Positions 953 to 38,070 of a stretch of DNA of 64,000 nt are shown piece after piece (position 1 is the stretch's first letter; every line of letters starts with the position of its first letter). Below the pieces are notes generated by a model, which made no database searches, was not told where the DNA came from, and saw only the letters and a list, made by a program, of their open reading frames with translations. The DNA is taken from assembly GCF_988242995.1 (NCBI RefSeq), contig NZ_OZ547043.1. One strand, 5' to 3'. The position numbers and the translations under genes were made by a program.

Positions 953-1174
953 ATGAATACAGAACGGGAAGTCTTTTTTAAATTGTTAGCATGTGCAGAA
1001 AGTTCATTAACTTTAAATAATTCAGCAAAAGCAATATTAAATATGTGGCTTGATTGCATAAATGACAATGAAGATGCAAATATTGCTTATGGCCTGTTGT
1101 CACTTATTGATGAATCAGCAGAAAAACTCAATGACGCAATAAATAGTGCCCTGCTATCAAATAAGTCGAGTTAA
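953..1174 (+). CDS. Hypothetical small protein (73 aa)
   Basis: ORF starts immediately after previous stop; GGGGGA RBS. Confidence 0.45.
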   Translation: MNTEREVFFKLLACAESSLTLNNSAKAILNMWLDCINDNEDANIAYGLLSLIDESAEKLNDAINSALLSNKSS

Positions 1175-1191
1175 GTCGAGGAATAAATAAT

Positions 1192-1491
1192 ATGGAAATG
1201 AAAAATTCTGGCTTTATTGCCAGCGGCCCCGCTCGGCCTGAATTTATGAACGGCGATATTTACCGCGATAAATACGGCGGCACGGTAACGATTAAAGGCG
1301 TGGCAGAACGGCGCATCACTTACCGCCGTGAGGGGTATAGCTATGACTGCGTGATGCCTGTTTATCAGTTCCGGCGTGATTTTTCCCTGGTATATGCCGC
1401 ACCCCGCAGTAAGCCCATCAGCAGGGAAAAAGCGCGGGGAAACATCCAGAAAATGAAAAGCATGATTAACGCATTCAGGGGCAAAAAATGA
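1192..1491 (+). CDS. Hypothetical protein (99 aa)
   Basis: ORF with GAGGAA RBS; stop overlaps primase start (ATGA). Confidence 0.45.
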   Translation: MEMKNSGFIASGPARPEFMNGDIYRDKYGGTVTIKGVAERRITYRREGYSYDCVMPVYQFRRDFSLVYAAPRSKPISREKARGNIQKMKSMINAFRGKK

Positions 1492-3239
1492 AACTGGCAC
1501 CGAACTTAAAAAAACAGCCACGCGACAGACTGACAGAGGTAATCATCTTTGCAGGTAGTGATGCGTGGAGCCATGCGAAAGAGTGGCGGGAATGGGCGGG
1601 TAAACATATTGCCGCCGACGATGTGCCGCCTGTCGTGCTGGCTGATGAGCAACTGAAAAATATCACCGATTACCGGATCATTGATGAAGATCGTCAGTGT
1701 GTGCGTGTTTACCGCGCAGGACATATCACAGAGCACAGCATGACGCAGATTGTTACGTTACTGGCTGTGGCTGGAGTGAAGACCGTACACGAATACGCGG
1801 GGATTACTGACACCAGCCCAGTGGATTTATCCGAGCAGTTGCCGCGACTCAAAGAGGAATGCGAGCGTGGGGAAAGTCTGGTGCTTAATCTTCCGACGAA
1901 GCAAAAGGCGCAACTTTCACAGATGGCAGACAGTGAACGTGCACAACTACTTGCCGATCGCTTTGATGGTGTGTGTGTTCATGCAGAAAGTGAAATCGTC
2001 CACGTATGGCGCGGCGGGGTATGGTGTCCGGTCAGCACAATGGAGCTGAGCCGCGAAATGGTGGCGATCTATTCAGAGCACAGGGCCACGTTCAGCAAAC
2101 GTGTAATCAATAACGCCGTGGAAGCGTTAAAAGTTATTGCCGACCCCATGGGGGAGCCGTCCGGTGATTTGCTACCGTTCACTAATGGTGTGCTTAACCT
2201 GAAAACGGGGGAATTTTCTCCGCACTCGCCGGAGCACTGGAGCACCACGCACAATGGCATTGAGTACACGCCACCAGTAGCAGGGGAAAACATCCGCGAT
2301 AATGCGCCAAATTTCCATAAATGGCTTGAACATGCTGCAAGAAAAGACCCGCGCAAGATGATGCGTATATGTGCCGCGTTATACATGATTATGGCGAACC
2401 GCTACGACTGGCAGATGTTCATTGAGGCCACCGGAGACGGGGGAAGCGGTAAGAGTACATTTACCCATATTGCCACCCTGCTTGCTGGCAAACAGAACAC
2501 CGTAAGCGCGGAGATGACATCACTCGATGATGCAGGAGGGCGCGCGCAGGTTGTCGGGAGTCGTCTTATCGTCCTTGCCGATCAGCCGAAATATACGGGG
2601 GAAGGCACGGGCATCAAGAAAATCACGGGAGGCGATCCCGTTGAAATTAACCCGAAATATGAGAAGCGATTCACGACGATAATAAGGGCGGTGGTACTGG
2701 CAACCAATAACGACCCGATGATCTTTACCGAACGGGCCGGAGGTGTGTCACGCCGTCGGGTGATTTTCCGGTTCGACAACATTGTAAGGGAGGACGAAAA
2801 AGACAAGGAATTACCGGAAAAGATAGCGGCAGAAATCCCCGTAATTATCCGCCGCTTGCTGGCTAATTTTGCTGACCCTGAAAAGGCACGGGCTTTATTA
2901 CTGGAACAGCGTGACGGTGATGAAGCTCTGGCAATAAAGCAGCAAACGGATCCGGTTGTTGAGCTTTGCGCGGCGCTGGAGTTTCTGGAGGAAGCTCGTG
3001 GGCTAATGATGGGCGGTGGTGGTGACACCGTGAAGTACACGACCAGAAACAGCCTTTACCGTGTCTATATGGCCTTCATGGCATACACAGGAAAGGGGAA
3101 ATGTTTGAGCGTGAATGAGTTCGGAAAGGCTATGAGGTCAGCGGCGAAAGTTTACGGATATGAATATATTACGCGAAAAGTTAAGGGAGTCACGCAGACC
3201 AACGCAACGACTACTGATGATTGCGATGCGTTTTTATAA
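1488..3239 (+). CDS. Replication primase-helicase of satellite/PICI type (P4 alpha-like, D5-family P-loop NTPase)
   Basis: 583-aa ORF with Walker A motif GDGGSGKST in the central domain; followed directly by an iteron cluster, as in P4 alpha/crr. Confidence 0.7.
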   Translation: MKLAPNLKKQPRDRLTEVIIFAGSDAWSHAKEWREWAGKHIAADDVPPVVLADEQLKNITDYRIIDEDRQCVRVYRAGHITEHSMTQIVTLLAVAGVKTVHEYAGITDTSPVDLSEQLPRLKEECERGESLVLNLPTKQKAQLSQMADSERAQLLADRFDGVCVHAESEIVHVWRGGVWCPVSTMELSREMVAIYSEHRATFSKRVINNAVEALKVIADPMGEPSGDLLPFTNGVLNLKTGEFSPHSPEHWSTTHNGIEYTPPVAGENIRDNAPNFHKWLEHAARKDPRKMMRICAALYMIMANRYDWQMFIEATGDGGSGKSTFTHIATLLAGKQNTVSAEMTSLDDAGGRAQVVGSRLIVLADQPKYTGEGTGIKKITGGDPVEINPKYEKRFTTIIRAVVLATNNDPMIFTERAGGVSRRRVIFRFDNIVREDEKDKELPEKIAAEIPVIIRRLLANFADPEKARALLLEQRDGDEALAIKQQTDPVVELCAALEFLEEARGLMMGGGGDTVKYTTRNSLYRVYMAFMAYTGKGKCLSVNEFGKAMRSAAKVYGYEYITRKVKGVTQTNATTTDDCDAFL

Positions 3240-3249
3240 AAAATGGCAA

Positions 3250-3485
3250 TGGTTATCTACCTTGTCTACCTGACTGAAAGAAAATACTTTTATTTCAATG
3301 TATTAATGCAGGTAGATAACTATTTTTCACTGTCTACCTGTTATCTACCTTATCTACCCATTTTTGTAGACAGGTAAGGAGACGGGTAGAGATGAGGTAG
3401 ACAGCTATTTGGGGCTGTCTACCTCCCTGAAACCCGCGCCATTACTGGCCTGATAACTAATCAGGTAGACAAGGTAGACAAGGTG
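3250..3485. repeat. Iteron cluster (about 11 copies of 8-bp GGTAGACA / TGTCTACC motif in both orientations); putative replication origin
   Basis: Seen directly: cttgtctacc, caggtagataac, ctgtctacctgttatctaccttatctaccc, gtagacaggt, gaggtagacagc, ggctgtctacctcc, caggtagacaaggtagacaagg. Confidence 0.7.
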
Positions 3486-3528
3486 GTGGTGCACAAAAAA
3501 CTTTTTAAACGAGGGGGTAAAAATAAAA

Positions 3529-3786
3529 ATGCACACATCAGGAAAACTGAACAAACATATAAAGCCACATTACCGCGCCCTTGATATGGCTGAACACTGG
3601 CTAAGGGTGGCGATTAAGGCAATAGACCGCAACGCCGGGGAAGGATACGCGAAAGCACATCCCGAACTGATAAGCGCATTCATGACAACGGCGGCTGCAA
3701 ACTTTGCCACGCTGACCGAACGGGAGATTGCTGAAGCGGAGGAAGTGACAACAATCAATATTAAGTCCGGAGAGCAGGCAGCATGA
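3529..3786 (+). CDS. Hypothetical protein (85 aa)
   Basis: ORF with GGGGGT RBS; stop overlaps next start. Confidence 0.4.
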   Translation: MHTSGKLNKHIKPHYRALDMAEHWLRVAIKAIDRNAGEGYAKAHPELISAFMTTAAANFATLTEREIAEAEEVTTINIKSGEQAA

Positions 3787-4232
3787 CGGCGCAAATATCA
3801 GTTTACGGGCGGTTGGTGGACGACCCGCAGACAAAACAGACCAGCAAGGGCACCCCCATGACGCTGGCGCGTATGGCGGTATCACTGCCCTGCAGTCAGT
3901 CGGATGACGGTCTGGCGACGTTGTGGTTATCTGTCCTGGCGTTTGGCAGACAAGCCGACGCGCTGGCAAAGCATCACAAAGGCGAACTCCTGAGCGTGGC
4001 GGGTAACATGCAGATGAGCCAGTGGACTGGACAGAACGGCGAAACGCGGCAGGGCTGGCAGGTTATCGCAGACAGCGTAATCAGTGCGCGATCGGTGCGA
4101 CCGGGCGGCAAAAAAGGCCAACAGGGGCAGGCTACTGACGCACTGAACAGAGCAAAACAACAGGCAGATCAGCAAGGAAGCCAGCCACCAGAGGGAGATA
4201 ATGAGCAATGGGGAGATGATATCCCGTTTTAA
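3783..4232 (+). CDS. Divergent single-stranded DNA-binding (SSB-like, OB-fold) protein with acidic C-terminal DDIPF tip
   Basis: 149-aa ORF; OB-fold-like core, Gly/Gln-rich linker, and C-terminus ...EGDNEQWGDDIPF matching the canonical SSB partner-binding tail. Confidence 0.6.
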   Translation: MTAQISVYGRLVDDPQTKQTSKGTPMTLARMAVSLPCSQSDDGLATLWLSVLAFGRQADALAKHHKGELLSVAGNMQMSQWTGQNGETRQGWQVIADSVISARSVRPGGKKGQQGQATDALNRAKQQADQQGSQPPEGDNEQWGDDIPF

Positions 4233-4248
4233 ATATTGCCAATAAAAA

Positions 4249-4276
4249 AAGCCGGAAAAAATAAATTTTCCGGCAT
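4249..4276. terminator. Stem-loop gccggaaaa/ttttccggc after SSB-like gene; orientation ambiguous
   Basis: 9-bp inverted repeat with A-run upstream and T-run within/after the stem. Confidence 0.3.
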
Positions 4277-4448
4277 GCTACATAAATCCCGACCAAAGGG
4301 AGTGAAGATATTAACACTAATTGTCCGCACTGAAGTTGTCACCCCAAAACTTTATACAACATTGCACTCGGTTGCATGTGTTCGCATGACAAATATCGGT
4401 GATAGCATATATCCACAATTATTTTTAATGAATGCAAAGAGGATGCGT

Positions 4449-5489
4449 ATGGTTGATTTATATTCGCCTACTCAGCTTGTACAGGTAGTTAATGCTGTAG
4501 ATGTACAAAAACAACTAAATGCGTTATTTACCAGTTTGTTTTTTACTCGCTCGGTAATGTTTGAATCGCGCGATATTATTCTTGATACAATCGACGATCC
4601 AAATATCCCAATTGCAGCGTTTTGTTCTCCTATGGTGGGTAGTAAAGTTTCACGTGACGAAGGGTACGAATCAAAAACAATTCGTCCAGGCTATATGAAG
4701 CCGAAAAGCAGCATTGATCCAAATAAGTTAGCTGTGCGCCCTGCTGGTGTGTCACCTGAGCAATACAATGCTTTTGGGGCGCGTAATATTAAAGTTAAAC
4801 AGGCGATTGTAAATCAGGCTAAAGCTATTCGTGCACGTATTGAATGGCTTGCTGTTCAGGCAATCACAACGGGGAAAAATATCATTGAGGGCGATGGTAT
4901 TGAACGTTATGAGCTGGACTGGAATATAAAACCACAAAATATCATCACTCAGTCTGGCGGTACTGAGTGGTCAGGTAAGGATAAAGAAACTTTTGATCCA
5001 AATGATGATATTGAGAGCTACGCAGAATTTAGTGAGGGCGTCACTAATATCATCATTATGGGTGGTAATGTATGGAAGAAATACCGTTCATTCAGAGCGA
5101 TAAAAGAGGCTTTGGATACCCGTCGTGGTTCTAATTCCGAACTGGAAACGGCCCTTAAAGACCTTGGTGATTCGGTGAGTTTTAAAGGGTATATGGGCGA
5201 TGTTGCGATTGTTGTTTACAGCGGGCGTTATACCGACGAGGACGGAACAGAAAAACATTTCCTTGATCCTGATTTGATGGTGCTTGGCAATACGGCTCTT
5301 CAGGGGATTGTCGCCTATGGCGGTATTCAGGATCCGGAGCTAATCCGAATGGGGCTGACTAAAGCCGAACTTGCACCGAAAAACTATATTGTGCCTGGTG
5401 ATCCGGCTATTGAATATGTGCAGACACATTCAGCACCACAGCCAATACCGGCCCGCATCAATCGTTTTGTTACCGTTCGCATTGGCTAA
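4449..5489 (+). CDS. Major capsid protein, lambda gpE family (divergent paralog, about 50 percent identity to lambda E over the C-terminal half)
   Basis: Start chosen at MVDLYSPTQL with AAGAGGA RBS (the track ORF begins upstream at 4236). Shares blocks ITQSGGTEWS, LDTRRGSNSELETA, GDVAIVVYSG with lambda E. Confidence 0.8.
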   Translation: MVDLYSPTQLVQVVNAVDVQKQLNALFTSLFFTRSVMFESRDIILDTIDDPNIPIAAFCSPMVGSKVSRDEGYESKTIRPGYMKPKSSIDPNKLAVRPAGVSPEQYNAFGARNIKVKQAIVNQAKAIRARIEWLAVQAITTGKNIIEGDGIERYELDWNIKPQNIITQSGGTEWSGKDKETFDPNDDIESYAEFSEGVTNIIIMGGNVWKKYRSFRAIKEALDTRRGSNSELETALKDLGDSVSFKGYMGDVAIVVYSGRYTDEDGTEKHFLDPDLMVLGNTALQGIVAYGGIQDPELIRMGLTKAELAPKNYIVPGDPAIEYVQTHSAPQPIPARINRFVTVRIG

Positions 5490-5498
5490 GGGGGAGCA

Positions 5499-5840
5499 AT
5501 GGCTACTCATTACACTGAACTCATGGCTGGCACTGAAGCACTGGTGACTACGCTGGGGATATTTTCAGCTAATAAAGGGGTAATTCCTGCATTTACGCCA
5601 CTGATGCAGGAAGATGCAACAGGTGCACTGGTGGTATGGGATGGTTCGAGCGTAGGTAAAGCGGTTTATGTTTCCGCTGTACAAATCGACACCGCGAAAA
5701 AAACACAGGCTCAGGTCTATAAGACAGGTGTCTTAAATGTTGATGCTCTGAACTGGCCTGAGTCTGTTAAAGAACTGTCAGTAAAGGTTGCAGCGTTTGT
5801 TGGCTCAGGTATTTCTGTTCAGCCGCTGGCTCGTGTGTAA
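5499..5840 (+). CDS. Head decoration protein, lambda gpD family
   Basis: 113-aa ORF; TPLMQEDATGALVVWDGSS...AAFVGSGISVQ aligns with lambda D TPLMLDTSSRKLVAWDGTT...TAFAGTAISIV. Confidence 0.7.
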   Translation: MATHYTELMAGTEALVTTLGIFSANKGVIPAFTPLMQEDATGALVVWDGSSVGKAVYVSAVQIDTAKKTQAQVYKTGVLNVDALNWPESVKELSVKVAAFVGSGISVQPLARV

Positions 5841-5851
5841 AGGGGGATACA

Positions 5852-6235
5852 ATGCAGAATGATTACAATGACCTTAAGCCAATTGCCGAAATGATGTACC
5901 CGAATCCAGCTGTAGAGGAATTAAAAGCTATCGCTGACAAAATGTGTTTAAGCGAGCGCCTTGTTGATATGAATCAGGTGATGGAAATTACAACCCTGAG
6001 TCGTCGTACACTGCTAAACCTTGAGGCTAGTGGAGAGTTCCCGGAGCGTGTGCAGGTTACGGAAGGGCGTAAGGCCTGGTATTTAAGTGAAGTGATCGAC
6101 TGGATAAATAATATTCCTCGCGCTTCTGAATATTGCCGCGTACCTGTCCCAAAAAAGCCAGATGCGGCGCTATGCCTCAAGATTGAGCGTGTACGCCGCA
6201 ATGCACGGGATGGTCGCTATAAGCTGATTGGTTGA
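5852..6235 (+). CDS. AlpA/excisionase-like HTH regulator
   Basis: 127-aa ORF; central segment MNQVMEITTLSRRTLLNLEASGEFPERVQVTEGRKAWYLSEVIDWINN resembles AlpA-family phage regulators. Confidence 0.55.
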   Translation: MQNDYNDLKPIAEMMYPNPAVEELKAIADKMCLSERLVDMNQVMEITTLSRRTLLNLEASGEFPERVQVTEGRKAWYLSEVIDWINNIPRASEYCRVPVPKKPDAALCLKIERVRRNARDGRYKLIG

Positions 6236-6397
6236 TGAAATTAGGGCCCGCTCTGGCTGGCGGGTCCTTTCCGGTGATCCAGAACGTTACGGGGCGTCAG
6301 GCGCGCAGATTCTTGCTATTTATGACAATTTTCTGCGATTTGCCGTTTCCGTTCTTCTTCCTCGTAACTTAGTGTTTTTACTAGAAATACCCTCTAA

Positions 6398-6448
6398 AAA
6401 GAAAGGAAATGACAGGTGCTGAAAACAGGCTTTTGGGTCTCCGTCATT
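6398..6448. terminator. Stem-loop (aaaggaaatgac ... gtcatttccttt) followed by T-rich tract
   Basis: 12-bp inverted repeat read directly, after the alpA-like gene. Confidence 0.4.
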
Positions 6449-6687
6449 TCCTTTCTCATTTTTATCTAAAAGTAAGCATCGAGGCCACCCCAAATGCTTA
6501 TAGAGGTTATTGTGTCACTATGCGTACTGTTCAGGATTTAAAGTAGCAAGACATCTAGTTGCTTGCAGTTTTGGCGAATGATGTGAGGTTCTCTATAACA
6601 GATAATGTAACAAGTTACTGATATATTCTGTTATGGTTGACTTTAAATTTTGTTGCTCCTTCAATGAATTATTGAGGGGTAAAAATT

Positions 6688-6713
6688 AGGCGTGATAAGA
6701 ATCGATCACGCCT
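6688..6713 (-). terminator. Rho-independent terminator for the 438-aa gene
   Basis: aggcgtgat/atcacgcct 9-bp stem immediately 3' of the minus-strand stop, followed on that strand by AATTTTTA. Confidence 0.45.
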
Positions 6714-6718
6714 ATTGT

Positions 6719-8035
6719 TTATCTTGAAGAAATTTTAGGCAGGCTTTTTAAAAATAAATCTTTATTTCTACTTGCATCAGTTAAAAGTGTTAGGAATATT
6801 TTATCTGTAGGAGTGCATGTGCTCTTGTTTAACAGTAATTCACCAAGTTTCTGTAATCGAGAGAATTGCCCATCCTCTTGGATTCTGTGACGAAGTGTAC
6901 TATCATTTTTAATAACATCAACAAATGCAGAAACCATGTTAATATCAAAGTGTTCAAACATTTCCAATATTAAAGGTGCAGCCCCATTTGAATAAAAATT
7001 CTTCCTTCCATACTGATAGCTGAAACCACGATGGCCAACATAAGTTTTTGTAATGGCTGAAACAAATTCAACAATATTATCTTCAGGGACGAAACTCGAG
7101 AATGGTAATAATTGGGTTACGATTTTTTCCTCTTCTGACCAATTATCTAAAGACTCGGTGAGTTTATTAATGAGAGGCTCAATAATAACTTTTCGGGATG
7201 CAGGGCTAATATACATCAGTCCATCTACCAATAGTATGAATTGTTGTGCCTTCTCTATCTTATTGTTGTTTCCTGAAACTAAATACTTGTCAAATTGTTG
7301 GCCGACTTTACGTCGGTCGTCTTTTGAAAGTAATGTCCATAAAATAGGTGCGCAAAATTCAATGTTGTTTCTGAGTTCACTTGATATATTGGATGAGCAG
7401 TATGTGCCAAAAAAACGAGAGGATAATTCACTGATATAAATTGCAGGTAGATCTGAAAAGGCTTGCTTAACTGCCAGACTATTTTTATTAAATGTTGCCG
7501 AATCCATTTCTGAAAGATATGTAGTTATATCTATGATGGCTGGTGGAAACTCTTTAGAAAGAACGTATTTATTACAATCATTAATCAGGTTCACTACTTT
7601 GATTAAATCAGGGTCGCTACTTTGTGGATGTCCACCAAATAGATTCCTGGTTTCTCTAGCTTGTTGTAATAGTTTCTGACCTTCTCGATCGATAACTCCT
7701 ATTTTAAATGCTCCATCTATTAAATCAAAGTCGCTCACATAATCCTGAAAATCTTCATACGTTTTAATTTCTTTTTTTTGTTTACACTCTTTGTTGAATA
7801 GATCTAGGCTACGATGAATTATCTTTTGACGTAAATCATCAACTACAGCATTCCAGTAAGCAGTGATGGCACTTCTATAACCTTTTACAGGAAGAACTCT
7901 TATTGCTTCTGAAATATATGGGCAGTCAACTACATCATGCCTCACAGTTGAGAGCGCAGTTTGTAACAATGTAACTTCTGTAGAGTCTAGTGGAGTTGGC
8001 TGCACTAAATGAGAACTTATCTCTGTACCCTTCAT
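6719..8035 (-). CDS. 438-aa hypothetical protein with N-terminal HEPN-like Rx5H motif (R130-N-L-F-G-G-H136); candidate abortive-infection/defence protein
   Basis: Long ORF on the opposite strand in a visibly AT-rich 2-kb block with its own upstream region and terminator; no similarity to phage structural or housekeeping proteins that I recognise. Confidence 0.5.
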   Translation of the reverse strand: MKGTEISSHLVQPTPLDSTEVTLLQTALSTVRHDVVDCPYISEAIRVLPVKGYRSAITAYWNAVVDDLRQKIIHRSLDLFNKECKQKKEIKTYEDFQDYVSDFDLIDGAFKIGVIDREGQKLLQQARETRNLFGGHPQSSDPDLIKVVNLINDCNKYVLSKEFPPAIIDITTYLSEMDSATFNKNSLAVKQAFSDLPAIYISELSSRFFGTYCSSNISSELRNNIEFCAPILWTLLSKDDRRKVGQQFDKYLVSGNNNKIEKAQQFILLVDGLMYISPASRKVIIEPLINKLTESLDNWSEEEKIVTQLLPFSSFVPEDNIVEFVSAITKTYVGHRGFSYQYGRKNFYSNGAAPLILEMFEHFDINMVSAFVDVIKNDSTLRHRIQEDGQFSRLQKLGELLLNKSTCTPTDKIFLTLLTDASRNKDLFLKSLPKISSR

Positions 8036-8391
8036 TTCAGGATTTTCCTATTCTTTTCCATTTTTCTACTCTATTGAATTTGAAAAAGATATCAAGTTCG
8101 TTCTTGCCAGTTTTAAGTGGAAAATTTGATGTTACCTTATTGAGATAAGGCAGTTCTCTATAACCTATTGTTATTAATTATTTTTATTTTTTTCCAATTC
8201 AGATGTTTAGGGCTAAGAAGTTAAGTGAGAGTTCACAGCAAAACTGCTTCTAGTTCCTCACCGAGGAGCAAAAGGTTAAGACAGCGTACTTTGTATTGCA
8301 CAATGTATTGCAGAACCTTCTTTCGAAAGCTACAACAATCAATTTTATATTGAAAATTCAATCATATCCTTTCGATATTGACTCATATAAC

Positions 8392-9179
8392 CCAAGCATG
8401 AGGTGAATCCGCAGATGACCCTGCGTCGCCTGCCGGATGAAGATCCGCAGAATCTGGCGGACCCGGCTTACCGCCGCCGTCGCATCATTATGCAGAACAT
8501 GCGTGACGAAGAGCTGGCCATTGCCCAGGTCGAAGAGATGCAGGCAGTTTCTGCCGTGCTTAAGGGCAAATACACCATGACCGGTGAAGCTTTCGATCCG
8601 GTTGAGGTGGATATGGGCCGCAGTGCGGCCAACAACATCACGCAGTCCGGCGGCACGGAGTGGAGCAAGCGTGACAAGTCCACGTATGACCCGACCGACG
8701 ATATCGAAGCCTACGCGCTGAACGCCAGCGGAGTGGTGAATATCATCGTGTTTGATCCGAAAGGCTGGGTGCTGTTCCGTTCCTTCAAAGCCGTCAAGGA
8801 GAAGCTGGATACTCGTCGCGGCTCTCATTCCGAGCTGGAGACAGCGGTGAAAGACCTGGGCAAAGCGGTGTCCTACAAGGGGATGTATGGCGATGTGGCC
8901 ATCGTCGTGTATTCCGGACAGTACGTGGAAAACGGCGTCAAAAAGAACTTCCTGCCGGACAACACGATGGTGCTGGGGAACACTCAGGCACGCGGTCTGC
9001 GCACCTATGGCTGCATTCAGGATGCGGACGCACAGCGCGAAGGCATTAACGCCTCTGCCCGTTACCCGAAAAACTGGGTGACCACCGGCGATCCGGCGCG
9101 TGAGTTCACCATGATTCAGTCAGCACCGCTGATGCTGCTGGCTGATCCTGATGAGTTCGTGTCTGTACAACTGGCGTAA
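8392..9179 (+). pseudogene. E: Major capsid gene E, 5'-truncated (about the first 96 codons missing)
   Basis: Translation from ...PKHEVNPQMTLRRLPDEDPQNLADPAYRRRR... to ...DPDEFVSVQLA is near-identical to lambda gpE residues about 97-341; upstream sequence is unrelated AT-rich DNA. Confidence 0.85.
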
Positions 9180-9995: not shown

Positions 9996-10574
9996 ATGGC
10001 CATAAAAGGTCTTGAGCAGGCCATTGAAAACCTCAGCCGTATCAGCAGAACGGCGGTGCCTGGTGCCGCCGCAATGGCCATTAACCGCGTTGCTTCATCC
10101 GCGATATCGCAGTCGGCGTCACAGGTTGCCCGTGAGACAAAGGTACGCCGGAAACTGGTAAAGGAAAGGGCCAGGCTGAAAAGGGCCACGGTCAAAAATC
10201 CGCAGGCCAGAATCAGGGTTAACCGGGGGGATTTGCCCGTAATCAGGCTGGGTAACGCGCGGGTTGTCCTTTCGCGCCGCAGGCGTCGTAAAAAGGGGCA
10301 GCGTTCATCCCTGAAAGGTGGCGGCAGCGTGCTTGTGGTGGGTAACCGTCGTATTCCCGGCGCGTTTATTCAGCAACTGAAAAATGGCCGGTGGCATGTC
10401 ATGCAGCGTGTGGCCGGGAAAAACCGTTACCCCATTGATGTGGTGAAAATCCCGATGGCGGTGCCGCTGACCACGGCGTTTAAACAAAATATTGAGCGGA
10501 TACGGCGTGAACGTCTTCCGAAAGAGCTGGGCTATGCGCTGCAGCATCAACTGAGGATGGTAATAAAGCGATGA
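9996..10574 (+). CDS. Z: Minor tail protein Z
   Basis: 192-aa ORF matching lambda gpZ. Confidence 0.9.
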   Translation: MAIKGLEQAIENLSRISRTAVPGAAAMAINRVASSAISQSASQVARETKVRRKLVKERARLKRATVKNPQARIRVNRGDLPVIRLGNARVVLSRRRRRKKGQRSSLKGGGSVLVVGNRRIPGAFIQQLKNGRWHVMQRVAGKNRYPIDVVKIPMAVPLTTAFKQNIERIRRERLPKELGYALQHQLRMVIKR

Positions 10575-10661
10575 AACATACTGAACTCCGTGCAGCCGTA
10601 CTGGATGCACTGGAGAAGCATGACACCGGGGCGACGTTTTTTGATGGTCGCCCCGCTGTTT

Positions 10662-11372
10662 GTGCACAGAAAACCCCCAGCTAGGCTGGGGGTTCCGGAA
10701 AGCTTTCAGCTTTGAGCCAGTTATTAAAACCCCTTTTGATTTGTTAAAACACCTTGCGGTCTGGCAACTGCAAGTGTCAAACAAGAAATCAAAAGGGGGT
10801 CCCAATGGGGAACGAAAAGAGCTTAGCGCACACCCGATGGAACTGTAAATATCACATAGTTTTTGCGCCAAAATACCGAAGACAGGTGTTCTACAGAGAG
10901 AAGCGTAGAGCAATAGGCAGTATTTTGAGAAAGCTGTGTGAGTGGAAAAGCGTACGGATTCTGGAAGCTGAATGCTGTGCAGATCATATCCATATGCTTG
11001 TGGAGATCCCGCCCAAAATGAGCGTATCCGGGTTTATGGGATATCTGAAAGGGAAAAGCAGTCTGATGCTTTACGAGCAGTTTGGTGATTTGAAATTCAA
11101 ATACAGGAACAGGGAGTTCTGGTGCAGAGGGTACTACGTCGATACAGTGGGTAAGAACACGGCGAAGATACAGGATTACATAAAGCACCAGCTTGAAGAG
11201 GATAAAATGGGAGAGCAGTTATCGATTCCCTATCCGGGCAGCCCGTTTACGGGCCGTAAGTAACGAAGTTGGATGCAAATGTCAGATCGTGTGCGCCTGT
11301 TAGGGCGCGGCTGGTAAGAGAGCCTTATAGGCGCATTTGAAAAACCTCCGGCTATGCCGGAGGATATTTATT
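10662..11372 (+). mobile_element. IS200 (IS200/IS605 family), about 711 bp, with terminal hairpins
   Basis: Contains the Y1 transposase gene; left-end hairpin cccccagctaggctggggg and right-end hairpin ctccggctatgccggag; boundaries inferred from interruption of lambda U. Confidence 0.8.
10805..11263 (+). CDS. tnpA: IS200 transposase TnpA (Y1/HUH)
   Basis: MGNEKSLAHTRWNCKYHIVFAPKYRRQVFY...HIHMLVEIPPK... matches IS200 TnpA (152 aa). Confidence 0.9.
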   Translation: MGNEKSLAHTRWNCKYHIVFAPKYRRQVFYREKRRAIGSILRKLCEWKSVRILEAECCADHIHMLVEIPPKMSVSGFMGYLKGKSSLMLYEQFGDLKFKYRNREFWCRGYYVDTVGKNTAKIQDYIKHQLEEDKMGEQLSIPYPGSPFTGRK

Positions 11373-11684
11373 TTGATGAGGCGGATTTTCCGGCAGTTGC
11401 CGTTTATCTCACCGGCGCTGAATACACGGGCGAAGAGCTGGACAGCGATACCTGGCAGGCGGAGCTGCATATCGAAGTTTTCCTGCCTGCTCAGGTGCCG
11501 GATTCAGAGCTGGATGCGTGGATGGAGTCCCGGATTTATCCGGTGATGAGCGATATCCCGGCACTGTCAGATTTGATCACCAGTATGGTGGCCAGCGGCT
11601 ATGACTACCGGCGCGACGATGATGCGGGCCTGTGGAGTTCAGCCGATCTGACTTATGTCATTACCTATGAAATGTGAGGACGCT

Positions 11685-12425
11685 ATGCCTGTACCAAATC
11701 CTACAATGCCGGTGAAAGGTGCCGGGACCACACTGTGGGTTTATAAGGGGAACGGTGACCCTTATGCGAACCCGCTTTCAGACGTGGACTGGTCGCGTCT
11801 GGCAAAAGTTAAAGACCTGACGCCCGGCGAACTGACCGCTGAGTCCTATGACGACAGCTATCTCGATGATGAAGATGCGGACTGGACTGCGACCGGGCAG
11901 GGGCAGAAATCAGCCGGAGATACCAGCTTCACGCTGGCGTGGATGCCCGGAGAGCAGGGGCAGCAGGCGCTGCTGGCGTGGTTTAATGAAGGTGATACCC
12001 GTGCCTATAAAATCCGCTTCCCGAACGGCACGGTCGATGTGTTCCGTGGCTGGGTCAGCAGTATCGGTAAAGCGGTGACGGCGAAGGAAGTGATCACCCG
12101 CACGGTGAAGGTCACCAATGTGGGACGCCCGTCGATGGCAGAAGATCGCAGCACGGTCACAGCGGCAACCGGCATGACCGTGACGCCTGCCAGCACCTCG
12201 GTGGTGAAAGGGCAGAGCACGACGCTGACCGTGGCATTCCAGCCGGAAGGCGCAACCGACAAGAGCTTCCGTGCGGTGTCTGCGGATAAAACAAAAGCCA
12301 CCGTGTCGGTCAGTGGTATGACCATCACCGTGAAAGGTGTTGCTGCAGGCAAGGTCAACATTCCGGTCGTATCCGGTAATGGTGAACTTGCTGCGGTTGC
12401 AGAAATCAACGTTACCGCCAGTTAA
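11685..12425 (+). CDS. V: Major tail protein V
   Basis: [22 protein letters not shown]... matches lambda gpV; C-terminal Ig-like domain present. Confidence 0.9.
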
Positions 12426-12440: not shown

Positions 12441-12863
12441 ATGTTCCTGAAAACCGAATCATTTGAACATAACGGTGTGACCGTCACGCTTTCTGAACTG
12501 TCAGCCCTGCAGCGTATTGAGCATCTCGCCCTGATGAAACGACAGGCAGAACAGGCGGAGTCAGACAGCAACCGGAAGTTTACTGTGGAAGACGCCATCA
12601 GAACCGGCGCTTTTGTGGTGGCGATGTCCCTGTGGCATAACCATCCGCAGAAGACAAAGCTGCCTTCCATGAATGAAGCCGTTAAACAGATTGAGCAGGA
12701 AGTGCTTACCACCTGGCCCACGGAGGCAATTTCTCATGCTGAAAACGTGGTGTACCGGCTGTCTGGTATGTATGAGTTTGTGGTGAATAATGCCCCTGAA
12801 CAGACAGAGGACGCCGGGCCCGCAGAGCCTGTTTCTGCGGGAAAGTGTTCGACGGTGAGCTGA
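12441..12863 (+). CDS. G: Tail assembly chaperone G
   Basis: 140-aa ORF matching lambda gpG; slippery heptamer GGGAAAG at 12839-12845 near its 3' end. Confidence 0.85.
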   Translation: MFLKTESFEHNGVTVTLSELSALQRIEHLALMKRQAEQAESDSNRKFTVEDAIRTGAFVVAMSLWHNHPQKTKLPSMNEAVKQIEQEVLTTWPTEAISHAENVVYRLSGMYEFVVNNAPEQTEDAGPAEPVSAGKCSTVS

Positions 12864-13279
12864 GTTTTGCCCTGAAACTGGCGCGTGAGATGGGGCGACC
12901 CGACTGGCGTGCCATGCTTGCCGGGATGTCATCCACGGAGTATGCCGACTGGCACCGCTTTTACAGTACCCATTATTTTCATGATGTTCTGCTGGATATG
13001 CACTTTTCCGGGCTGACGTACACCGTGCTCAGCCTGTTTTTCAGCGATCCGGATATGCATCCGCTGGATTTCAGTCTGCTGAACCGGCGCGAGGCTGACG
13101 AAGAGCCTGAAGATGATGTGCTGATGCAGAAAGCGGCAGGGCTTGCCGGAGGTGTCCGCTTTGGCCCGGACGGGAATGAAGTTATCCCCGCTTCCCCGGA
13201 TGTGGCGGACATGACGGAGGATGACGTAATGCTGATGACAGTATCAGAAGGGATCGCAGGAGGAGTCCGGTATGGCTGA
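12845..13279 (+). CDS. T: Tail assembly protein T, expressed as G-T fusion by -1 programmed frameshift
   Basis: T reading frame has no own RBS/ATG and opens at the G slippery site; matches lambda gpT. Confidence 0.8.
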   Translation: MFDGELSFALKLAREMGRPDWRAMLAGMSSTEYADWHRFYSTHYFHDVLLDMHFSGLTYTVLSLFFSDPDMHPLDFSLLNRREADEEPEDDVLMQKAAGLAGGVRFGPDGNEVIPASPDVADMTEDDVMLMTVSEGIAGGVRYG

Positions 13280-15833
13280 ACCGGTAGGCGATCTGGTCGT
13301 TGATTTGAGTCTGGATGCGGCCAGATTTGACGAGCAGATGGCCAGAGTCAGGCGTCATTTTTCCGGTACGGAAAGTGATGCGAAAAAAACAGCGGCAGTC
13401 GTTGAACAGTCGCTGAGCCGACAGGCGCTGGCTGCACAGAAAGCGGGGATTTCCGTCGGGCAGTATAAAGCCGCCATGCGTATGCTGCCTGCACAGTTCA
13501 CCGACGTGGCCACGCAGCTTGCAGGCGGGCAAAGTCCGTGGCTGATCCTGCTGCAACAGGGGGGGCAGGTGAAGGACTCCTTCGGCGGGATGATCCCCAT
13601 GTTCAGGGGGCTTGCCGGTGCGATCACCCTGCCGATGGTGGGGGCCACCTCGCTGGCGGTGGCGACCGGTGCGCTGGCGTATGCCTGGTATCAGGGCAAC
13701 TCAACCCTGTCCGATTTCAACAAAACGCTGGTCCTTTCCGGCAATCAGGCGGGACTGACGGCAGATCGTATGCTGGTCCTGTCCAGAGCCGGGCAGGCGG
13801 CAGGGCTGACGTTTAACCAGACCAGCGAGTCACTCAGCGCACTGGTTAAGGCGGGGGTAAGCGGTGAGGCTCAGATTGCGTCCATCAGCCAGAGTGTGGC
13901 GCGTTTCTCCTCTGCATCCGGCGTGGAGGTGGACAAGGTCGCTGAAGCCTTCGGGAAGCTGACCACAGACCCGACGTCTGGGCTGACGGCGATGGCACGC
14001 CAGTTCCATAACGTGACGGCGGAGCAGATTGCGTATGTTGCTCAGTTGCAGCGTTCCGGCGATGAAGCCGGGGCATTGCAGGCGGCGAACGAGGCCGCAA
14101 CGAAAGGGTTTGATGACCAGACCCGCCGCCTGAAAGAGAACATGGGCACGCTGGAGACCTGGGCAGACAGGACTGCGCGGGCATTCAAATCCATGTGGGA
14201 TGCGGTGCTGGATATTGGTCGTCCTGATACCGCGCAGGAGATGCTGATTAAGGCAGAGGCTGCGTTTAAGAAAGCAGACGACATCTGGAATCTGCGCAAG
14301 GATGATTATTTTGTTAACGATGAAGCGCGGGCGCGTTACTGGGATGATCGTGAAAAGGCCCGTCTTGCGCTTGAAGCCGCCCGAAAGAAGGCTGAGCAGC
14401 AGACTCAACAGGACAAAAATGCGCAGCAGCAGAGCGATACCGAAGCGTCACGGCTGAAATATACCGAAGAGGCGCAGAAGGCTTACGAACGGCTGCAGAC
14501 GCCGCTGGAGAAATATACCGCCCGTCAGGAAGAACTGAACAAGGCACTGAAAGACGGGAAAATCCTGCAGGCGGATTACAACACGCTGATGGCGGCGGCG
14601 AAAAAGGATTATGAAGCGACGCTGAAAAAGCCGAAACAGTCCGGCGTGAAGGTGTCTGCGGGCGATCGTCAGGAAGACAGTGCTCATGCTGCCCTGCTGA
14701 CGCTTCAGGCAGAACTCCGGACGCTGGAGAAGCATGCCGGAGCAAATGAGAAAATCAGCCAGCAGCGCCGGGATTTGTGGAAGGCGGAGAGTCAGTTCGC
14801 GGTACTGGAGGAGGCGGCGCAACGTCGCCAGCTGTCTGCACAGGAGAAATCCCTGCTGGCGCATAAAGATGAGACGCTGGAGTACAAACGCCAGCTGGCT
14901 GCACTTGGCGACAAGGTTACGTATCAGGAGCGCCTGAACGCGCTGGCGCAGCAGGCGGATAAATTCGCACAGCAGCAACGGGCAAAACGGGCCGCCATTG
15001 ATGCGAAAAGCCGGGGGCTGACTGACCGGCAGGCAGAACGGGAAGCCACGGAACAGCGCCTGAAGGAACAGTATGGCGATAATCCGCTGGCGCTGAATAA
15101 CGTCATGTCAGAGCAGAAAAAGACCTGGGCGGCTGAAGACCAGCTTCGCGGGAACTGGATGGCAGGCCTGAAGTCCGGCTGGAGTGAGTGGGAAGAGAGC
15201 GCCACGGACAGTATGTCGCAGGTAAAAAGTGCAGCCACGCAGACCTTTGATGGTATTGCACAGAATATGGCGGCGATGCTGACCGGCAGTGAGCAGAACT
15301 GGCGCAGCTTCACCCGTTCCGTGCTGTCCATGATGACAGAAATTCTGCTTAAGCAGGCAATGGTGGGGATTGTCGGGAGTATCGGCAGCGCCATTGGCGG
15401 GGCTGTTGGTGGCGGCGCATCCGCGTCAGGCGGTACAGCCATTCAGGCCGCTGCGGCGAAATTCCATTTTGCAACCGGAGGATTCACAGGAACCGGCGGC
15501 AAATATGAGCCAGCGGGGATTGTTCACCGTGGTGAATTTGTCTTCACGAAGGAGGCAACCAGCCGGATTGGCGTGGGGAATCTCTACCGGCTGATGCGCG
15601 GCTATGCCACCGGTGGTTATGTCGGTACACCGGGCAGTCTGGCTGACAGCCGGTCGCAGGCGTCCGGGACGTTTGAGCAGAATAACCATGTGGTGATTAA
15701 CAACGACGGCACGAACGGGCAGATAGGTCCGGCTGCTCTGAAGGCGGTGTATGACATGGCCCGCAAGGGTGCCCGTGATGAAATTCAGACACAGATGCGT
15801 GATGGTGGCCTGTTCTCCGGAGGTGGACGATGA
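13272..15833 (+). CDS. H: Tail tape measure protein H
   Basis: 853-aa ORF, same length as lambda gpH; coiled-coil-rich. Confidence 0.9.
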   Translation: MAEPVGDLVVDLSLDAARFDEQMARVRRHFSGTESDAKKTAAVVEQSLSRQALAAQKAGISVGQYKAAMRMLPAQFTDVATQLAGGQSPWLILLQQGGQVKDSFGGMIPMFRGLAGAITLPMVGATSLAVATGALAYAWYQGNSTLSDFNKTLVLSGNQAGLTADRMLVLSRAGQAAGLTFNQTSESLSALVKAGVSGEAQIASISQSVARFSSASGVEVDKVAEAFGKLTTDPTSGLTAMARQFHNVTAEQIAYVAQLQRSGDEAGALQAANEAATKGFDDQTRRLKENMGTLETWADRTARAFKSMWDAVLDIGRPDTAQEMLIKAEAAFKKADDIWNLRKDDYFVNDEARARYWDDREKARLALEAARKKAEQQTQQDKNAQQQSDTEASRLKYTEEAQKAYERLQTPLEKYTARQEELNKALKDGKILQADYNTLMAAAKKDYEATLKKPKQSGVKVSAGDRQEDSAHAALLTLQAELRTLEKHAGANEKISQQRRDLWKAESQFAVLEEAAQRRQLSAQEKSLLAHKDETLEYKRQLAALGDKVTYQERLNALAQQADKFAQQQRAKRAAIDAKSRGLTDRQAEREATEQRLKEQYGDNPLALNNVMSEQKKTWAAEDQLRGNWMAGLKSGWSEWEESATDSMSQVKSAATQTFDGIAQNMAAMLTGSEQNWRSFTRSVLSMMTEILLKQAMVGIVGSIGSAIGGAVGGGASASGGTAIQAAAAKFHFATGGFTGTGGKYEPAGIVHRGEFVFTKEATSRIGVGNLYRLMRGYATGGYVGTPGSLADSRSQASGTFEQNNHVVINNDGTNGQIGPAALKAVYDMARKGARDEIQTQMRDGGLFSGGGR

Positions 15834-16861: not shown

Positions 16862-17605
16862 ATGACAGAGACAGAATCAGCGATTCTGGCGCACGCCCGG
16901 CGATGTGCGCCAGCGGAGTCGTGCGGCTTCGTGGTAAGCACGCCGGAGGGGGAAAGATATTTCCCCTGCGTGAATATCTCCGGTGAGCCGGAGGCGTATT
17001 TCCGTATGTCGCCGGAAGACTGGCTGCAGGCAGAAATGCAGGGTGAGATTGTGGCGCTGGTCCACAGCCACCCCGGTGGTCTGCCCTGGCTGAGTGAGGC
17101 CGACCGGCGGCTGCAGGTGCAGAGTGATTTGCCGTGGTGGCTGGTCTGCCGGGGGGCGATTCATAAGTTCCGCTGTGTGCCGCATCTCACCGGGCGGCGC
17201 TTTGAGCACGGGGTGACGGACTGTTACACGCTGTTCCGGGATGCTTATCATCTGGCGGGGATTGAGATGCCGGATTTTCATCGCGAGGATGACTGGTGGC
17301 GTCACGGTCAGAATCTCTATCTGGATAATCTGGAGGCCACAGGGCTGTATCAGGTGCCGTTGTCATCAGCACAACCGGGCGATGTGCTGCTGTGCTGTTT
17401 TGGTTCATCGGTGCCGAATCATGCCGCCATTTACTGTGGTGATGGCGAGCTGCTGCACCATATTCCTGAACAACTGAGCAAACGAGAGAGGTATACCGAC
17501 AAATGGCAGCGACGCACACACTCCCTCTGGCGTCACCGGGCATGGCGCGCATCTGCCTTTACGGGGATTTACAACGATTTGGTCGCCGCATCGACCTTCG
17601 TGTGA
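16862..17605 (+). CDS. K: Tail tip assembly protein K (alternative in-frame start at 17006 would give the 199-aa form)
   Basis: Matches lambda gpK (NlpC/P60-like); start ambiguity noted from sequence. Confidence 0.8.
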   Translation: MTETESAILAHARRCAPAESCGFVVSTPEGERYFPCVNISGEPEAYFRMSPEDWLQAEMQGEIVALVHSHPGGLPWLSEADRRLQVQSDLPWWLVCRGAIHKFRCVPHLTGRRFEHGVTDCYTLFRDAYHLAGIEMPDFHREDDWWRHGQNLYLDNLEATGLYQVPLSSAQPGDVLLCCFGSSVPNHAAIYCGDGELLHHIPEQLSKRERYTDKWQRRTHSLWRHRAWRASAFTGIYNDLVAASTFV

Positions 17606-18144
17606 AAACGGGGGCTGAAGCCATCCGGGCGCTGGCCACACAGCTCCCGGCGTTTCGTCAGAAACTGAGCGACGGCTGGTATCAGGTACGGATTGCCGGG
17701 CGTGATACAGGTGAAACGGAATTATCAGCCCGTCTTAATGAACCGCTGGCAAATGGTGCTGTGATCCATATCGTGCCGCGTCTGGCAGGAGCCAAAAGTG
17801 GCGGTGTGTTTCAGGCTGTGCTGGGGGCGGCTGTTATGGCGGTTGCTATATGGATGCCGGGGGTAGGAATTATGGCGAGTAATCTGCTGTTTTCTCTCGG
17901 TGCCAGTATGACGCTTGGCGGTGTTGCACAGATGCTGGCCCCTAAACCCAAAACCCCCCGCACACAGACAACGGATAACGGCAAACAGAACACCTATTTT
18001 TCTTCACTGGATAATATGGTTGCCCAGGGCAATGTTCTGCCCGTTCTGTACGGTGAAATGCGCGTGGGATCACGTGTGGTATCTCAGGAGATCAGCACAG
18101 CAGATGAAGGTGATGGTGGTCAGGTTGTGGTGATTGGTCGCTGA
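17503..18144 (+). CDS. I: Tail tip assembly protein I
   Basis: MAATHTLPLASPGMARICLYGDLQRFGRRIDLRVKTGAEAIRALATQLPAF... matches lambda gpI; overlaps K by about 100 nt. Confidence 0.85.
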   Translation: MAATHTLPLASPGMARICLYGDLQRFGRRIDLRVKTGAEAIRALATQLPAFRQKLSDGWYQVRIAGRDTGETELSARLNEPLANGAVIHIVPRLAGAKSGGVFQAVLGAAVMAVAIWMPGVGIMASNLLFSLGASMTLGGVAQMLAPKPKTPRTQTTDNGKQNTYFSSLDNMVAQGNVLPVLYGEMRVGSRVVSQEISTADEGDGGQVVVIGR

Positions 18145-18204
18145 TGAAAAACGTTTTATGTGAAACCGCCTCCGGGCGGTTTTATCGTTTATGGAGCATG
18201 ACGA

Positions 18205-21200
18205 ATGGGTAAAGGCAGCAGTAAGGGGCATACCCCGCGCGAAGCGAAGGACAACCTGAAGTCCACGCAGCTGCTGAGTGTGATCGATGCCATCAGCGAA
18301 GGGCCGGTTGAAGGTCCGGTGGATGGATTAAAAAGCGTGCTGCTGAACAGTACGCCGGTGCTGGACAGTGAGGGGAATACCAATATATCCGGCGTCACGG
18401 TGGTGTTCCGGGCCGGTGAGCAGGAGCAGACTCCGCCGGAGGGATTTGAATCCTCCGGTTCCGAGACGGTGCTGGGTACGGAAGTGAAATATGACACGCC
18501 GATCACCCGCACCATCACGTCGGCAAACATCGACCGTCTGCGCTTTACCTTCGGTGTGCAGGCACTGGTGGAAACCACCTCAAAGGGGGACAGGAATCCA
18601 TCGGAAGTCCGCCTGCTGGTTCAGATACAACGTAACGGTGGCTGGGTGACGGAAAAAGACATCACCATTAAGGGTAAAACCACCTCGCAGTATCTGGCCT
18701 CAGTGGTGGTGGATAACCTGCCGCCGCGCCCGTTTAATATCCGGATGCGCAGGATGACGCCGGACAGCACCACAGACCAGCTGCAGAACAAAACGCTCTG
18801 GTCGTCATACACCGAAATCATCGATGTGAAACAGTGCTACCCGAACACGGCACTGGTCGGCGTGCAGGTGGACTCGGAGCAGTTCGGCAGCCAGCAGGTG
18901 AGCCGTAATTATCATCTGCGCGGGCGTATTCTGCAGGTGCCGTCGAACTATAACCCGCAGACGCGGCAATACAGCGGTATCTGGGACGGGACGTTTAAAC
19001 CGGCATACAGCAACAACATGGCCTGGTGTCTGTGGGATATGCTGACCCATCCGCGCTACGGCATGGGGAAGCGTCTCGGTGCGGCGGATGTGGACAAATG
19101 GGCGCTGTATGTCATCGGCCAGAATTGCGACCAGTCGGTGCCGGATGGCTTTGGTGGCACGGAGCCGCGCATCACCTGTAATGCCTGGCTGACCACGCAG
19201 CGCAAGGCGTGGGATGTGCTCAGTGATTTCTGCTCGGCGATGCGCTGTATGCCGGTATGGAACGGGCAGACGCTGACGTTCGTGCAGGACCGGCCATCGG
19301 ATAAGGTGTGGACCTATAACCGCAGTAATGTGGTGATGCCGGATGATGGCGCGCCGTTCCGCTACAGCTTCAGCGCCCTGAAGGACCGTCATAATGCCGT
19401 TGAGGTGAACTGGATTGACCCGGATAACGGCTGGGAGACGGCGACAGAGCTTGTGGAGGACACGCAGGCCATTGCCCGTTACGGTCGTAACGTCACGAAG
19501 ATGGATGCCTTTGGCTGTACCAGCCGGGGGCAGGCACACCGCGCCGGGCTGTGGCTGATTAAAACAGAACTGCTGGAAACGCAGACCGTGGATTTCAGCG
19601 TCGGCGCAGAAGGGCTTCGCCATGTACCGGGTGATGTTATTGAAATCTGCGATGATGACTATGCGGGGATCAGCATTGGCGGGCGCGTGCTGGCGGTGAA
19701 CAGCCAGACCCGGACGCTGACGCTCGACCGTGAAATCACGCTGCCATCCTCCGGTACCACGCTGATAAGCCTGGTTGACGGGCAGGGGAGTCCGGTCAGC
19801 GTGGAGGTTCAGTCCGTCACCGACGGCGTGAAGGTGAAAGTGAGTCGGGTTCCTGACGGCGTTGCCGAATACAGCGTGTGGGGGCTGAAGCTGCCGACGC
19901 TGCGCCAGCGCCTGTTCCGCTGTGTGAGTATCCGTGAGAACGATGACGGCACGTATGCCATCACCGCCGTGCAGCATGTACCGGAAAAAGAAGCCATCGT
20001 GGATAACGGGGCGCACTTTGACGGCGACCAGAGCGGCACGGTGAATGGTGTCACGCCGCCAGCGGTGCAGCACCTGACCGCCGAAGTCACCGCAGACAGC
20101 GGGGAATATCAGGTGCTGGCGCGATGGGACACGCCGAAGGTGGTGAAGGGCGTGAGCTTCCTGCTTCGCCTTACCGTGGCAGCGGACGACGGCAGTGAGC
20201 GGCTGGTCAGCATGGCCCGGACGACGGAAACCACATACCGCTTCAGGCAACTGGCGCTGGGGAACTACAGGCTGACAGTCCGGGCGGTAAATGCGTGGGG
20301 GCAGCAGGGCGATCCGGCGTCGGTATCGTTCCGGATTGCCGCACCGGCAGCACCGTCGAGGATTGAGCTGACGCCGGGCTATTTTCAGATAACCGCCACG
20401 CCGCATCTTGCCGTTTATGACCCGACGGTACAGTTTGAGTTCTGGTTCTCGGAAAATCGGATTGCGGATATCAGGCAGGTTGAAACCAGCGCGCGTTATC
20501 TTGGCACGGCGCTGTACTGGATAGCCGCCAGTATCAATATCAAACCGGGCCATGATTATTATTTTTACGTTCGCAGTGTGAACACCGTCGGCAAATCGAC
20601 ATTCGTGGAGGCTGTCGGTCGGGTGAGCGATGATGCGGAAGGTTACCTGGATTTTTTCAAAGGCAAGATAACCGAATCCCATCTCGGCAAGGAGCTGCTG
20701 GAAAAAGTCGAGCTGACGGAGGATAACGCCAGCAGACTGGAGGAGTTTTCGAAAGAGTGGAAGGACGCCAACGATAAGTGGAATGCCATGTGGGCTGTCA
20801 AAATTGAGCAGACCAAAGACGGCAAACATTATGTCGCGGGTATTGGCCTCAGCATGGAGGACACGGAGGAAGGCAAACTGAGCCAGTTCCTGGTTGCCGC
20901 TAACCGTATCGCATTTATTGACCCGGCAAACGGGAATGAAACGCCGATGTTTGTGGCGCAGGGCAATCAGATATTCATGAACGAAGTGTTCCTGAAATAT
21001 CTGACGGCTCCCACCATTACCAGCGGCGGTAATCCTCCGGCATTTTCCCTGACACCGGACGGGCGGCTGACGGCGAAAAATGCCGATATCAGCGGTAACG
21101 TGAATGCGAACTCCGGGACGCTCAACAACGTCACGATTAACGAGAACTGCCGGGTTCTGGGAAAACTGTCCGCGAACCAGATTGAAGGCGATCTCGTTAA

Positions 21201-21600
21201 AACAGTGGGCAAAGCTTTCCCCCGTGACTCCCGGGCACCGGAGCGGTGGCCATCAGGGACCATTACCGTCAGGGTTTATGACGATCAGCCGTTTGACCGG
21301 CAAATTGTTATTCCGGCGGTGGCATTCAGTGGCGCTAAGCATGAGAGAGAGCATACTGATATTTACTCCTCATGCCGTCTGATAGTGCGGAAAAACGGTG
21401 CTGAAATTTATAACCGTACCGCGCTGGATAATACGCTGATTTACAGTGGCGTTATTGATATGCCTGCCGGTCACGGTCACATGACACTGGAGTTTTCGGT
21501 GTCAGCATGGCTGGTAAATGGCTGGTATCCCACAGCAAGTATCAGCGATTTGCTGGTTGTTGTGATGAAGAAAGCCACTGCAGGCATCACGATTAGCTGA
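18205..21600 (+). CDS. J: Central tail fibre / host specificity protein J
   Basis: 1131-aa ORF matching lambda gpJ (lambda J is 1132 aa). Confidence 0.9.
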
Positions 21601-38068: not shown

Positions 38069-38070
38069 AA

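Follow-up and report, generated by a model that had tools for sequence, protein, structure and literature searches.

The G/GT frameshift site of phage lambda in the tail module of an interrupted lambda-type prophage

We analyzed a 64,000-nucleotide stretch of contig NZ_OZ547043.1 (NCBI RefSeq assembly GCF_988242995.1), referred to below as the window, which carries a lambda-type E. coli prophage with its tail genes in the order Z-U-V-G-T-H-M-L-K-I-J. Genes G and T overlap and are placed between V and H, as they are in lambda (Table 1). All of the tail genes but U are full length by comparison with lambda, and in an alignment to lambda each of Z, V, G, T, H, M, L, K, I, and J was free of inactivating changes. 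The G product matched the equivalog model TIGR01674 (E = 7e-64, 213.8 bits against a cutoff of 74.45) and Pfam PF06894 (E = 1e-59), and the T product matched the equivalog model TIGR01715 (E = 2e-56, 189.1 bits against a cutoff of 77.35) and Pfam PF06223. A search with 1.1 kb around the site matched 121 phage records, with lambda and its close relatives at the top (98.5%). HK630 and DE3 are among these records, the HK630 product being labeled "tail assembly protein GT".

Table 1. Coordinates of the features discussed in the text, in window positions
Feature	Position	Strand	Evidence or remarks
Satellite Icd-like gene	68–583		
Satellite P4-type primase gene	1488–3239		
Satellite SSB gene	3783–4232		
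Satellite E-family capsid gene	4452–5489		42% aa identity to lambda E
Satellite D-family decoration gene	5499–5840		
Satellite AlpA-like regulator gene	5852–6235		
Satellite cos-like site	6304–6463		83% identical to lambda 13–173
Satellite 438-aa gene	6719–8035	−	cargo position after cos-like site; phrog_27609 (unknown function)
attR of satellite	~8385–8395		
E, major capsid, 3' fragment	8391–9179		residues 80–341 only
U, tail terminator, 5' fragment	10571–10661	+	codons 1–30; 100% identity to lambda U residues 1–30
IS200C	10662–11370	+	709 bp (±2 nt, T-run); NF033573, PF01797, STnc490
STnc490 match in IS200C	10672–10795		Rfam
IS200C tnpA	10754–11263		
U' ORF	11354–11677		107 aa
U, 3' fragment	11371–11677	+	lambda residues ~31–131; PF06141 profile positions 31–130; lambda alignment
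V, major tail tube protein, upstream neighbor	11685–12425	+	PF16461 and Big_2; 98% aa identity to lambda V
G, tail assembly chaperone gpG, zero-frame product	12441–12863	+	140 aa; ORF, translation, TIGR01674, PF06894
Slippery heptamer G GGA AAG, −1 shift site	12839–12845	+	Gly-Lys in both frames; identical to lambda 10109–10115
T segment, −1 frame after slip	12845–13279	+	144 codons and stop; open frame, lambda identity, TIGR01715, PF06223
Dual-coding overlap, slip site to G stop	12846–12863	+	G: CSTVS-stop; T: VFDGEL; near-invariant in relatives
H, tape measure protein, downstream neighbor	13272–15833	+	853 aa; PF06791, PF09718; 99.5% aa identity to lambda H
nfrB-cusS insert	36384–45313	−	~9.7 kb
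DDE_Tnp_1-family transposase gene in insert	36384–37520	−	
prePAAR-Rhs protein gene in insert	38071–42735	−	1554 aa; Tox-PL-2 papain-fold toxin tip
DcrB/DUF1795-type adaptor gene in insert	42887–43348	−	
vgrG in insert	43376–45313	−	
sok antisense RNA match, first copy	60263–60418	+	
sok antisense RNA match, second copy	60766–60921	+	
ES036 sRNA match	61866–61907	−	

The products of Z, V, G, T, H, M, L, and K have 95–100% amino acid identity to those of lambda. The distal tail region (17503–21600 and 22326–24722) is more diverged, with I and J at 81% and 89.6% identity, respectively, and the side tail fibre gene is long and open (798 aa). This divergence and the long side tail fibre suggest that a mosaic joint is present and that receptor specificity differs.

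An earlier note on this DNA had placed the heptamer GGGAAAG near the 3' end of G, at 12835–12850, with T open in the −1 frame. A direct read of these positions gave ...CCTGTTTCTGCGGGAAAGTGTTCGACGGTGAGCTGA..., and the heptamer was found inside that interval. Because its first base, 12839, falls at the third position of a codon in G, the heptamer has the X XXY YYZ phasing, as G GGA AAG, and both tRNAs can re-pair one base back. It lies 7 codons ahead of the G stop and is the only slippery motif in the G-T overlap. The −1 frame is indeed open across the slip site, from about 12803 to 13279. Its nearest upstream stop is 13 codons before the Lys codon, and it ends 144 codons past the slip, at a TGA (13277–13279). 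The predicted G-T fusion, gpGT, would have 279 residues, with PVSAGK joined to VFDGELSF at the junction (predicted junction peptide ...PVSAGKVFDGELSF...).

The same note had described the site "as in lambda", and alignment to the lambda G-T region (NC_001416) shows this to be literally so, the heptamer and all of T being base-identical. Nucleotide identity is 100% across 12666–13279, which takes in the heptamer, the overlap, and all of T. This identical stretch begins 173 nt 5' of the heptamer and runs to the end of T, which also has 100% amino acid identity to lambda T. Across all 839 nt of the G-T block the two sequences differ at 8 positions, all at 12515–12665 within G. Five are synonymous, and the other three are the substitutions L59V, Q73K, and M74L; gpG thus differs from that of lambda at 3 of 140 residues (97.9% amino acid identity), each lying over 170 nt 5' of the slip site. 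The window contains no sequence evidence against lambda G-T identity. We hold with high confidence that this is the programmed −1 ribosomal frameshift site of phage lambda G/GT, which a lambda-type prophage carries without change in its tail module. The feature is already known, being the prototype tail-chaperone frameshift, first described in 1993.

The earlier note had further held that U is disrupted and that the tail chaperone pair is nonetheless intact, and both statements stood up, the second at the level of the G and T sequences. The junctions and the lambda alignment show a 709-bp IS200C inserted into U after codon 30, so that codons 1–30 (10571–10660) are followed by IS sequence and a stop. 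GC-rich hairpins are present at both ends of IS200C, the right one terminator-like on the plus strand, and these could lower V-G-T transcription unless it is Q-antiterminated. The right end of the IS also provides an in-frame ATG for a U' ORF, which encodes MPEDIY followed by U residues 31–131; a similar ORF in E. coli BEC1-S17-ESBL-09 is called an intact "minor tail U family protein" by PGAP. Expression of U' seems unlikely, since its ATG is inside an 8-bp terminator-like hairpin (11345–11363). A functional lambda-type tail pathway requires an intact tail terminator U, which this prophage lacks. Given that all of the tail genes except U are intact, the block to tail production is a single IS200C insertion.

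Our comparison of IS200C junctions took in loci L004, L086, and L087–L090. IS200C abuts the same U base in three prophages, namely that of the window and those of E. coli MEW and E. coli BEC1-S17-ESBL-09, and the tail module of the last is only 81.5% identical. The target in U, at 10628–10661, is a GC-rich hairpin with a T-run (GGGGCGAC...GTCGCCCC GCTGTTT). Four unrelated copies of IS200C, which follow pflA, ybiR, gadC, and a prophage decoration gene, are directly 3' of a terminator-like hairpin and T-run. With repeated insertion at the same base and such targets elsewhere, U seems to hold an IS200C hot spot.

The prophage is also interrupted in its major capsid gene E. An 11-kb satellite has inserted at codon 80 of E, and its right part occupies window positions 1 to about 8390. 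This satellite is a published helper-embedded PICI of the 11capE type (site E:Phage_cap_E:80), a class described by Mageeney et al. 2023 (PMC10111431). E. coli EC931 holds the complete arrangement (L085 16244–28602), in the order 5' E fragment, integrase, Icd-like gene, P4-type primase, SSB, E-family capsid, D-family decoration, AlpA-like gene, cos-like site, 438-aa gene, and 3' E fragment. The 438-aa gene had no match in Pfam, NCBIfam, or PADLOC, and phrog_27609 was its only assignment. In FDAARGOS_1268, the region matching window 1–9000 contains DUF262 and HEPN genes; the cargo slot of the satellite may be variable and possibly defence-related. A paper on "tail assembly interference" (PMC11364771) gave no link to G/GT or to the 438-aa gene. 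The combination of the satellite in E with IS200C in U was found in none of the complete E. coli genomes searched. At its right end the prophage adjoins appY-ompT-envY, which is the DLP12 locus of E. coli.

Beyond the prophage, the window contains an insert between nfrB and cusS that we take to be absent from the K-12 gene order. It carries vgrG, an adaptor gene, a prePAAR-Rhs gene, and a transposase gene (Table 1) and looks like a type VI secretion effector islet; PADLOC gave no matches to its genes. Upstream of a gene for a TonB-dependent receptor, in chromosomal DNA of the window, are two tandem sok antisense RNA matches, which indicate a duplicated hok/sok-type toxin-antitoxin locus, and an ES036 sRNA match.

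The two interruptions give rise to an alternative, which is that the site is intact in sequence and yet a silent relic, the prophage being defective, G and T no longer expressed or selected, and too little time having passed for decay. U is split by IS200C and E by the satellite, the terminator-like hairpins at the IS ends are upstream of V-G-T, and the late promoter, like Q, is outside the window. Since normal tails cannot be finished without U, the G-T site may currently be unused. Against a relic, the ten other tail genes listed above are free of inactivating changes, T has remained identical to that of lambda, and the interruption of E by satellites of this kind is reported to be undone when the satellite excises after induction (PMC10111431). 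We regard a silent relic as possible, if rather doubtful. It concerns the current use of the site and not its identity, and can therefore coexist with the assignment of the site to lambda G/GT.

In itself the site matters little, being a copy of the prototype that is base-identical to lambda. Its state helps in judging the prophage, a doubly interrupted helper (in U and E) with its other tail genes intact. The embedded satellite reportedly relies on the helper phage for the structure of the virion and the functions of assembly, and a block of tail production by IS200C in U would also strand it. One could speculate that the intact tail module, with a working G-T frameshift, has been kept for the satellite's need of helper tails and that recurrent IS200C insertion at a single terminator-like hairpin in U is a targeted brake, at the level of the host or the IS, on the mobility of prophage and satellite. 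If this were true, recurrent insertion would repeatedly disable lambdoid tails and satellite spread and would not be random decay; we think it very unlikely.

A different reading of the locus is suggested by its annotation. Both NC_001416 and E. coli genomes annotate T as a separate CDS, and an ORF finder reports 12845–13279 with a GTG start, so that T might be a stand-alone gene initiated at its own GTG, with the heptamer incidental. In the T frame, lambda and the window have GTG directly after the slip, one relative (L069) has GCG, and others (L070–L084 and E. coli BEC1-S17-ESBL-09, L086) have GTC. These relatives keep the heptamer, and the GTG at 12845 is not a conserved T start. The only Shine-Dalgarno-like match before it is a GGGA (−4.3 kcal/mol) that ends 1–2 nt from the GTG, which is too near to serve; the GGAG of G, by comparison, is properly spaced, about 7 nt 5' of the ATG. 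Independent initiation of T was rejected on these two grounds, the unconserved start codon and the badly spaced match, and the literature describes T as having no start and as made by frameshift only. That T is a stand-alone gene is extremely unlikely.

Separate T CDSs are annotated at lambda 10115–10549 (L001/L003), L004 14546–14980, L085 31557–31991, and L086 2779–3192. RefSeq lambda and PGAP start T at the GTG that overlaps the heptamer, and in the BEC1 annotation T begins 51 nt downstream, at an internal Met. No public annotation at these loci joins T to G by ribosomal slippage, while nearby IS1/IS3 frameshifts are joined by PGAP. The correct annotation here would be G together with a G-T fusion that arises through ribosomal slippage.

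The heptamer might also be a chance occurrence with no recoding role. By itself GGGAAAG is present at chance frequency, with 9 copies in the window versus 8.35 ± 2.75 in shuffles. Because this count alone is not significant, we tested the whole configuration instead, defined as an open stretch of 100 codons or more, with a slippery heptamer in phase among its last 40 codons, from which the −1 frame extends for 100 codons or more. The real window has 3 such cases, compared with 0.22 expected per window in random sequence of the same composition, and the other two cases are shadow frames antisense to long minus-strand genes. A scan of the G protein against IMG/VR viral contigs yielded 80 loci with 67–98% protein identity, 77 of them with a complete G. 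When the last 30 codons of G were searched without bias for X XXY YYZ motifs of any kind in phase, GGGAAAG was found, in phase and 7 codons ahead of the G stop, in 76 of these 77 homologues (67–98% amino acid identity). In the 76, the −1 frame is 103–152 codons long in all cases where the T stop falls within the stored sequence. The sole exception, L066, has G shortened to 124 aa and no heptamer.

In an alignment of these relatives, the 3' end of G just 5' of the heptamer is variable at almost every column and CTGCGGGAAAG is invariant; ten of these invariant columns are fixed by the anchor of the alignment, and the independent test is the unbiased motif search. The dual-coding overlap is near-invariant. 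With the heptamer and the stop distance kept and the sequence upstream hypervariable, the shift site is conserved beyond coding need. The phase, the 7-codon stop distance, the 144-codon −1 extension homologous to lambda T, and the unchanged heptamer of 76 of 77 homologues whose flanks vary leave next to no probability that the heptamer is fortuitous. As to T in individual relatives, L007 has an early stop (T frame of 103 codons), and L017 has an internal 45-nt in-frame deletion at alignment columns 71–85 (T frame of 129 codons). L066, L007, and L017 may be decaying prophage copies.

We also looked for RNA structure near the site. A single-sequence fold of the 100 nt downstream had an MFE z score of −1.55, and a stimulatory structure was dropped as unsupported. 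In a consensus fold of 19 distinct relatives, 0 of 39 predicted pairs were compensatory (covariation term −0.08), with too little variation to exclude a structure. A scan of the whole window with Rfam found no family at the G-T site, its matches being STnc490 in IS200, the two sok copies, and ES036. A strong stimulator is not called for, since the rate reported for lambda is a modest one of about 4%. The lambda site is not known to need a downstream structure.

Slippage of RNA polymerase on the A-run, and not of the ribosome, would also change the frame, and the motif does have short homopolymer runs; nothing site-specific points to such slippage, the runs are just 3 G and 3 A, and programmed transcriptional slippage needs runs of about twice that length. 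Reviews class lambda G-T as ribosomal, as contrasted with transcriptional slippage systems (PMC5009743), and tRNA-Lys thiolation alters the gpG:gpGT ratio (PMC3296357); we give polymerase slippage almost no weight.

For the mechanism of the lambda G/GT shift we have drawn on reviews and on Maynard et al. 2012. In lambda, about 96% of ribosomes keep to the zero frame and yield gpG, and the rest slip −1 on G GGA AAG and make gpGT (Levin et al. 1993, via PMC3296357). G GGA AAG is named as the lambda shift site in Table 1 of PMC3296357, in PMC5009743, and in PMC7618472. E. coli has a single tRNA-Lys (mnm5s2UUU) for both AAG and AAA, and the rate, and with it the gpG:gpGT ratio, is tuned by the thiolation state of this tRNA (PMC3296357). 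Tail assembly requires a ratio of about 30:1, with gpG and the G part of gpGT binding the tape measure protein, the T part binding gpV, and neither protein remaining in the completed tail (PMC5009743).

Applied to the prophage, this would mean that a ribosome translating G reaches G GGA AAG with tRNA-Gly on GGA and tRNA-Lys (mnm5s2UUU) on AAG. Both tRNAs would re-pair one base back, on GGG AAA, in about 4% of passes, and the ribosome would then read on in the T frame, bypassing the G stop six codons downstream. The outcome would be about 30 gpG (140 aa) per gpGT (279 aa). The gpG and the G part of gpGT would coat the tape-measure protein H, the T part would recruit the tube protein V, and neither gpG nor gpGT would be present in the finished tail. 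Since no base differs from lambda between a point 173 nt 5' of the heptamer and the T stop, we infer that the site would still shift at the lambda rate. Production of gpG and gpGT at about 30:1 in the prophage would be expected from the identity over 12666–13279 taken together with published lambda data.

Among known frameshift systems, E. coli dnaX (A AAA AAG) has a shift rate of about 50%, for which both an upstream SD-like element and a downstream stem-loop are needed. It resembles the G-T site in its tandem −1 slip with the single tRNA-Lys on an A-site AAG (PMC5009743). The G-T site is unlike dnaX in having no detectable conserved stimulatory structure and in the rate reported for lambda, about 4%. 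In the IS1/IS3-family transposases a −1 slip likewise fuses two overlapping ORFs, and PGAP applies the tag "programmed frameshift" in a related E. coli locus. These differ from G-T in that they are transposase genes with different motifs, and it is the transposase ORFs, not G and T, that PGAP joins.

In other long-tailed phages the tail-chaperone shift is said, from the work of Xu et al. in 2004, to be −1 in most, −2 in Mu, and +1 in some. These phages have, like the prophage, two overlapping ORFs between the major tail and tape-measure genes, from which a low-frequency shift produces a short and a long chaperone (PMC5009743). They share position and logic with the prophage site, usually not its sequence or slippery motif, and the prophage site is the lambda prototype itself. 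The lambda G/GT frameshift has reportedly been characterized by Levin, Hendrix and Casjens in 1993 and by Xu, Hendrix and Duda in 2004, 2013, and 2014. The prophage copy is unlike that of lambda in its 3 conservative gpG substitutions and 5 synonymous changes and in the interruption of U and E; the heptamer, its phase, the distance to the G stop, the T frame, the 173 nt upstream, the flanking V and H genes, and the protein families are alike in the two.
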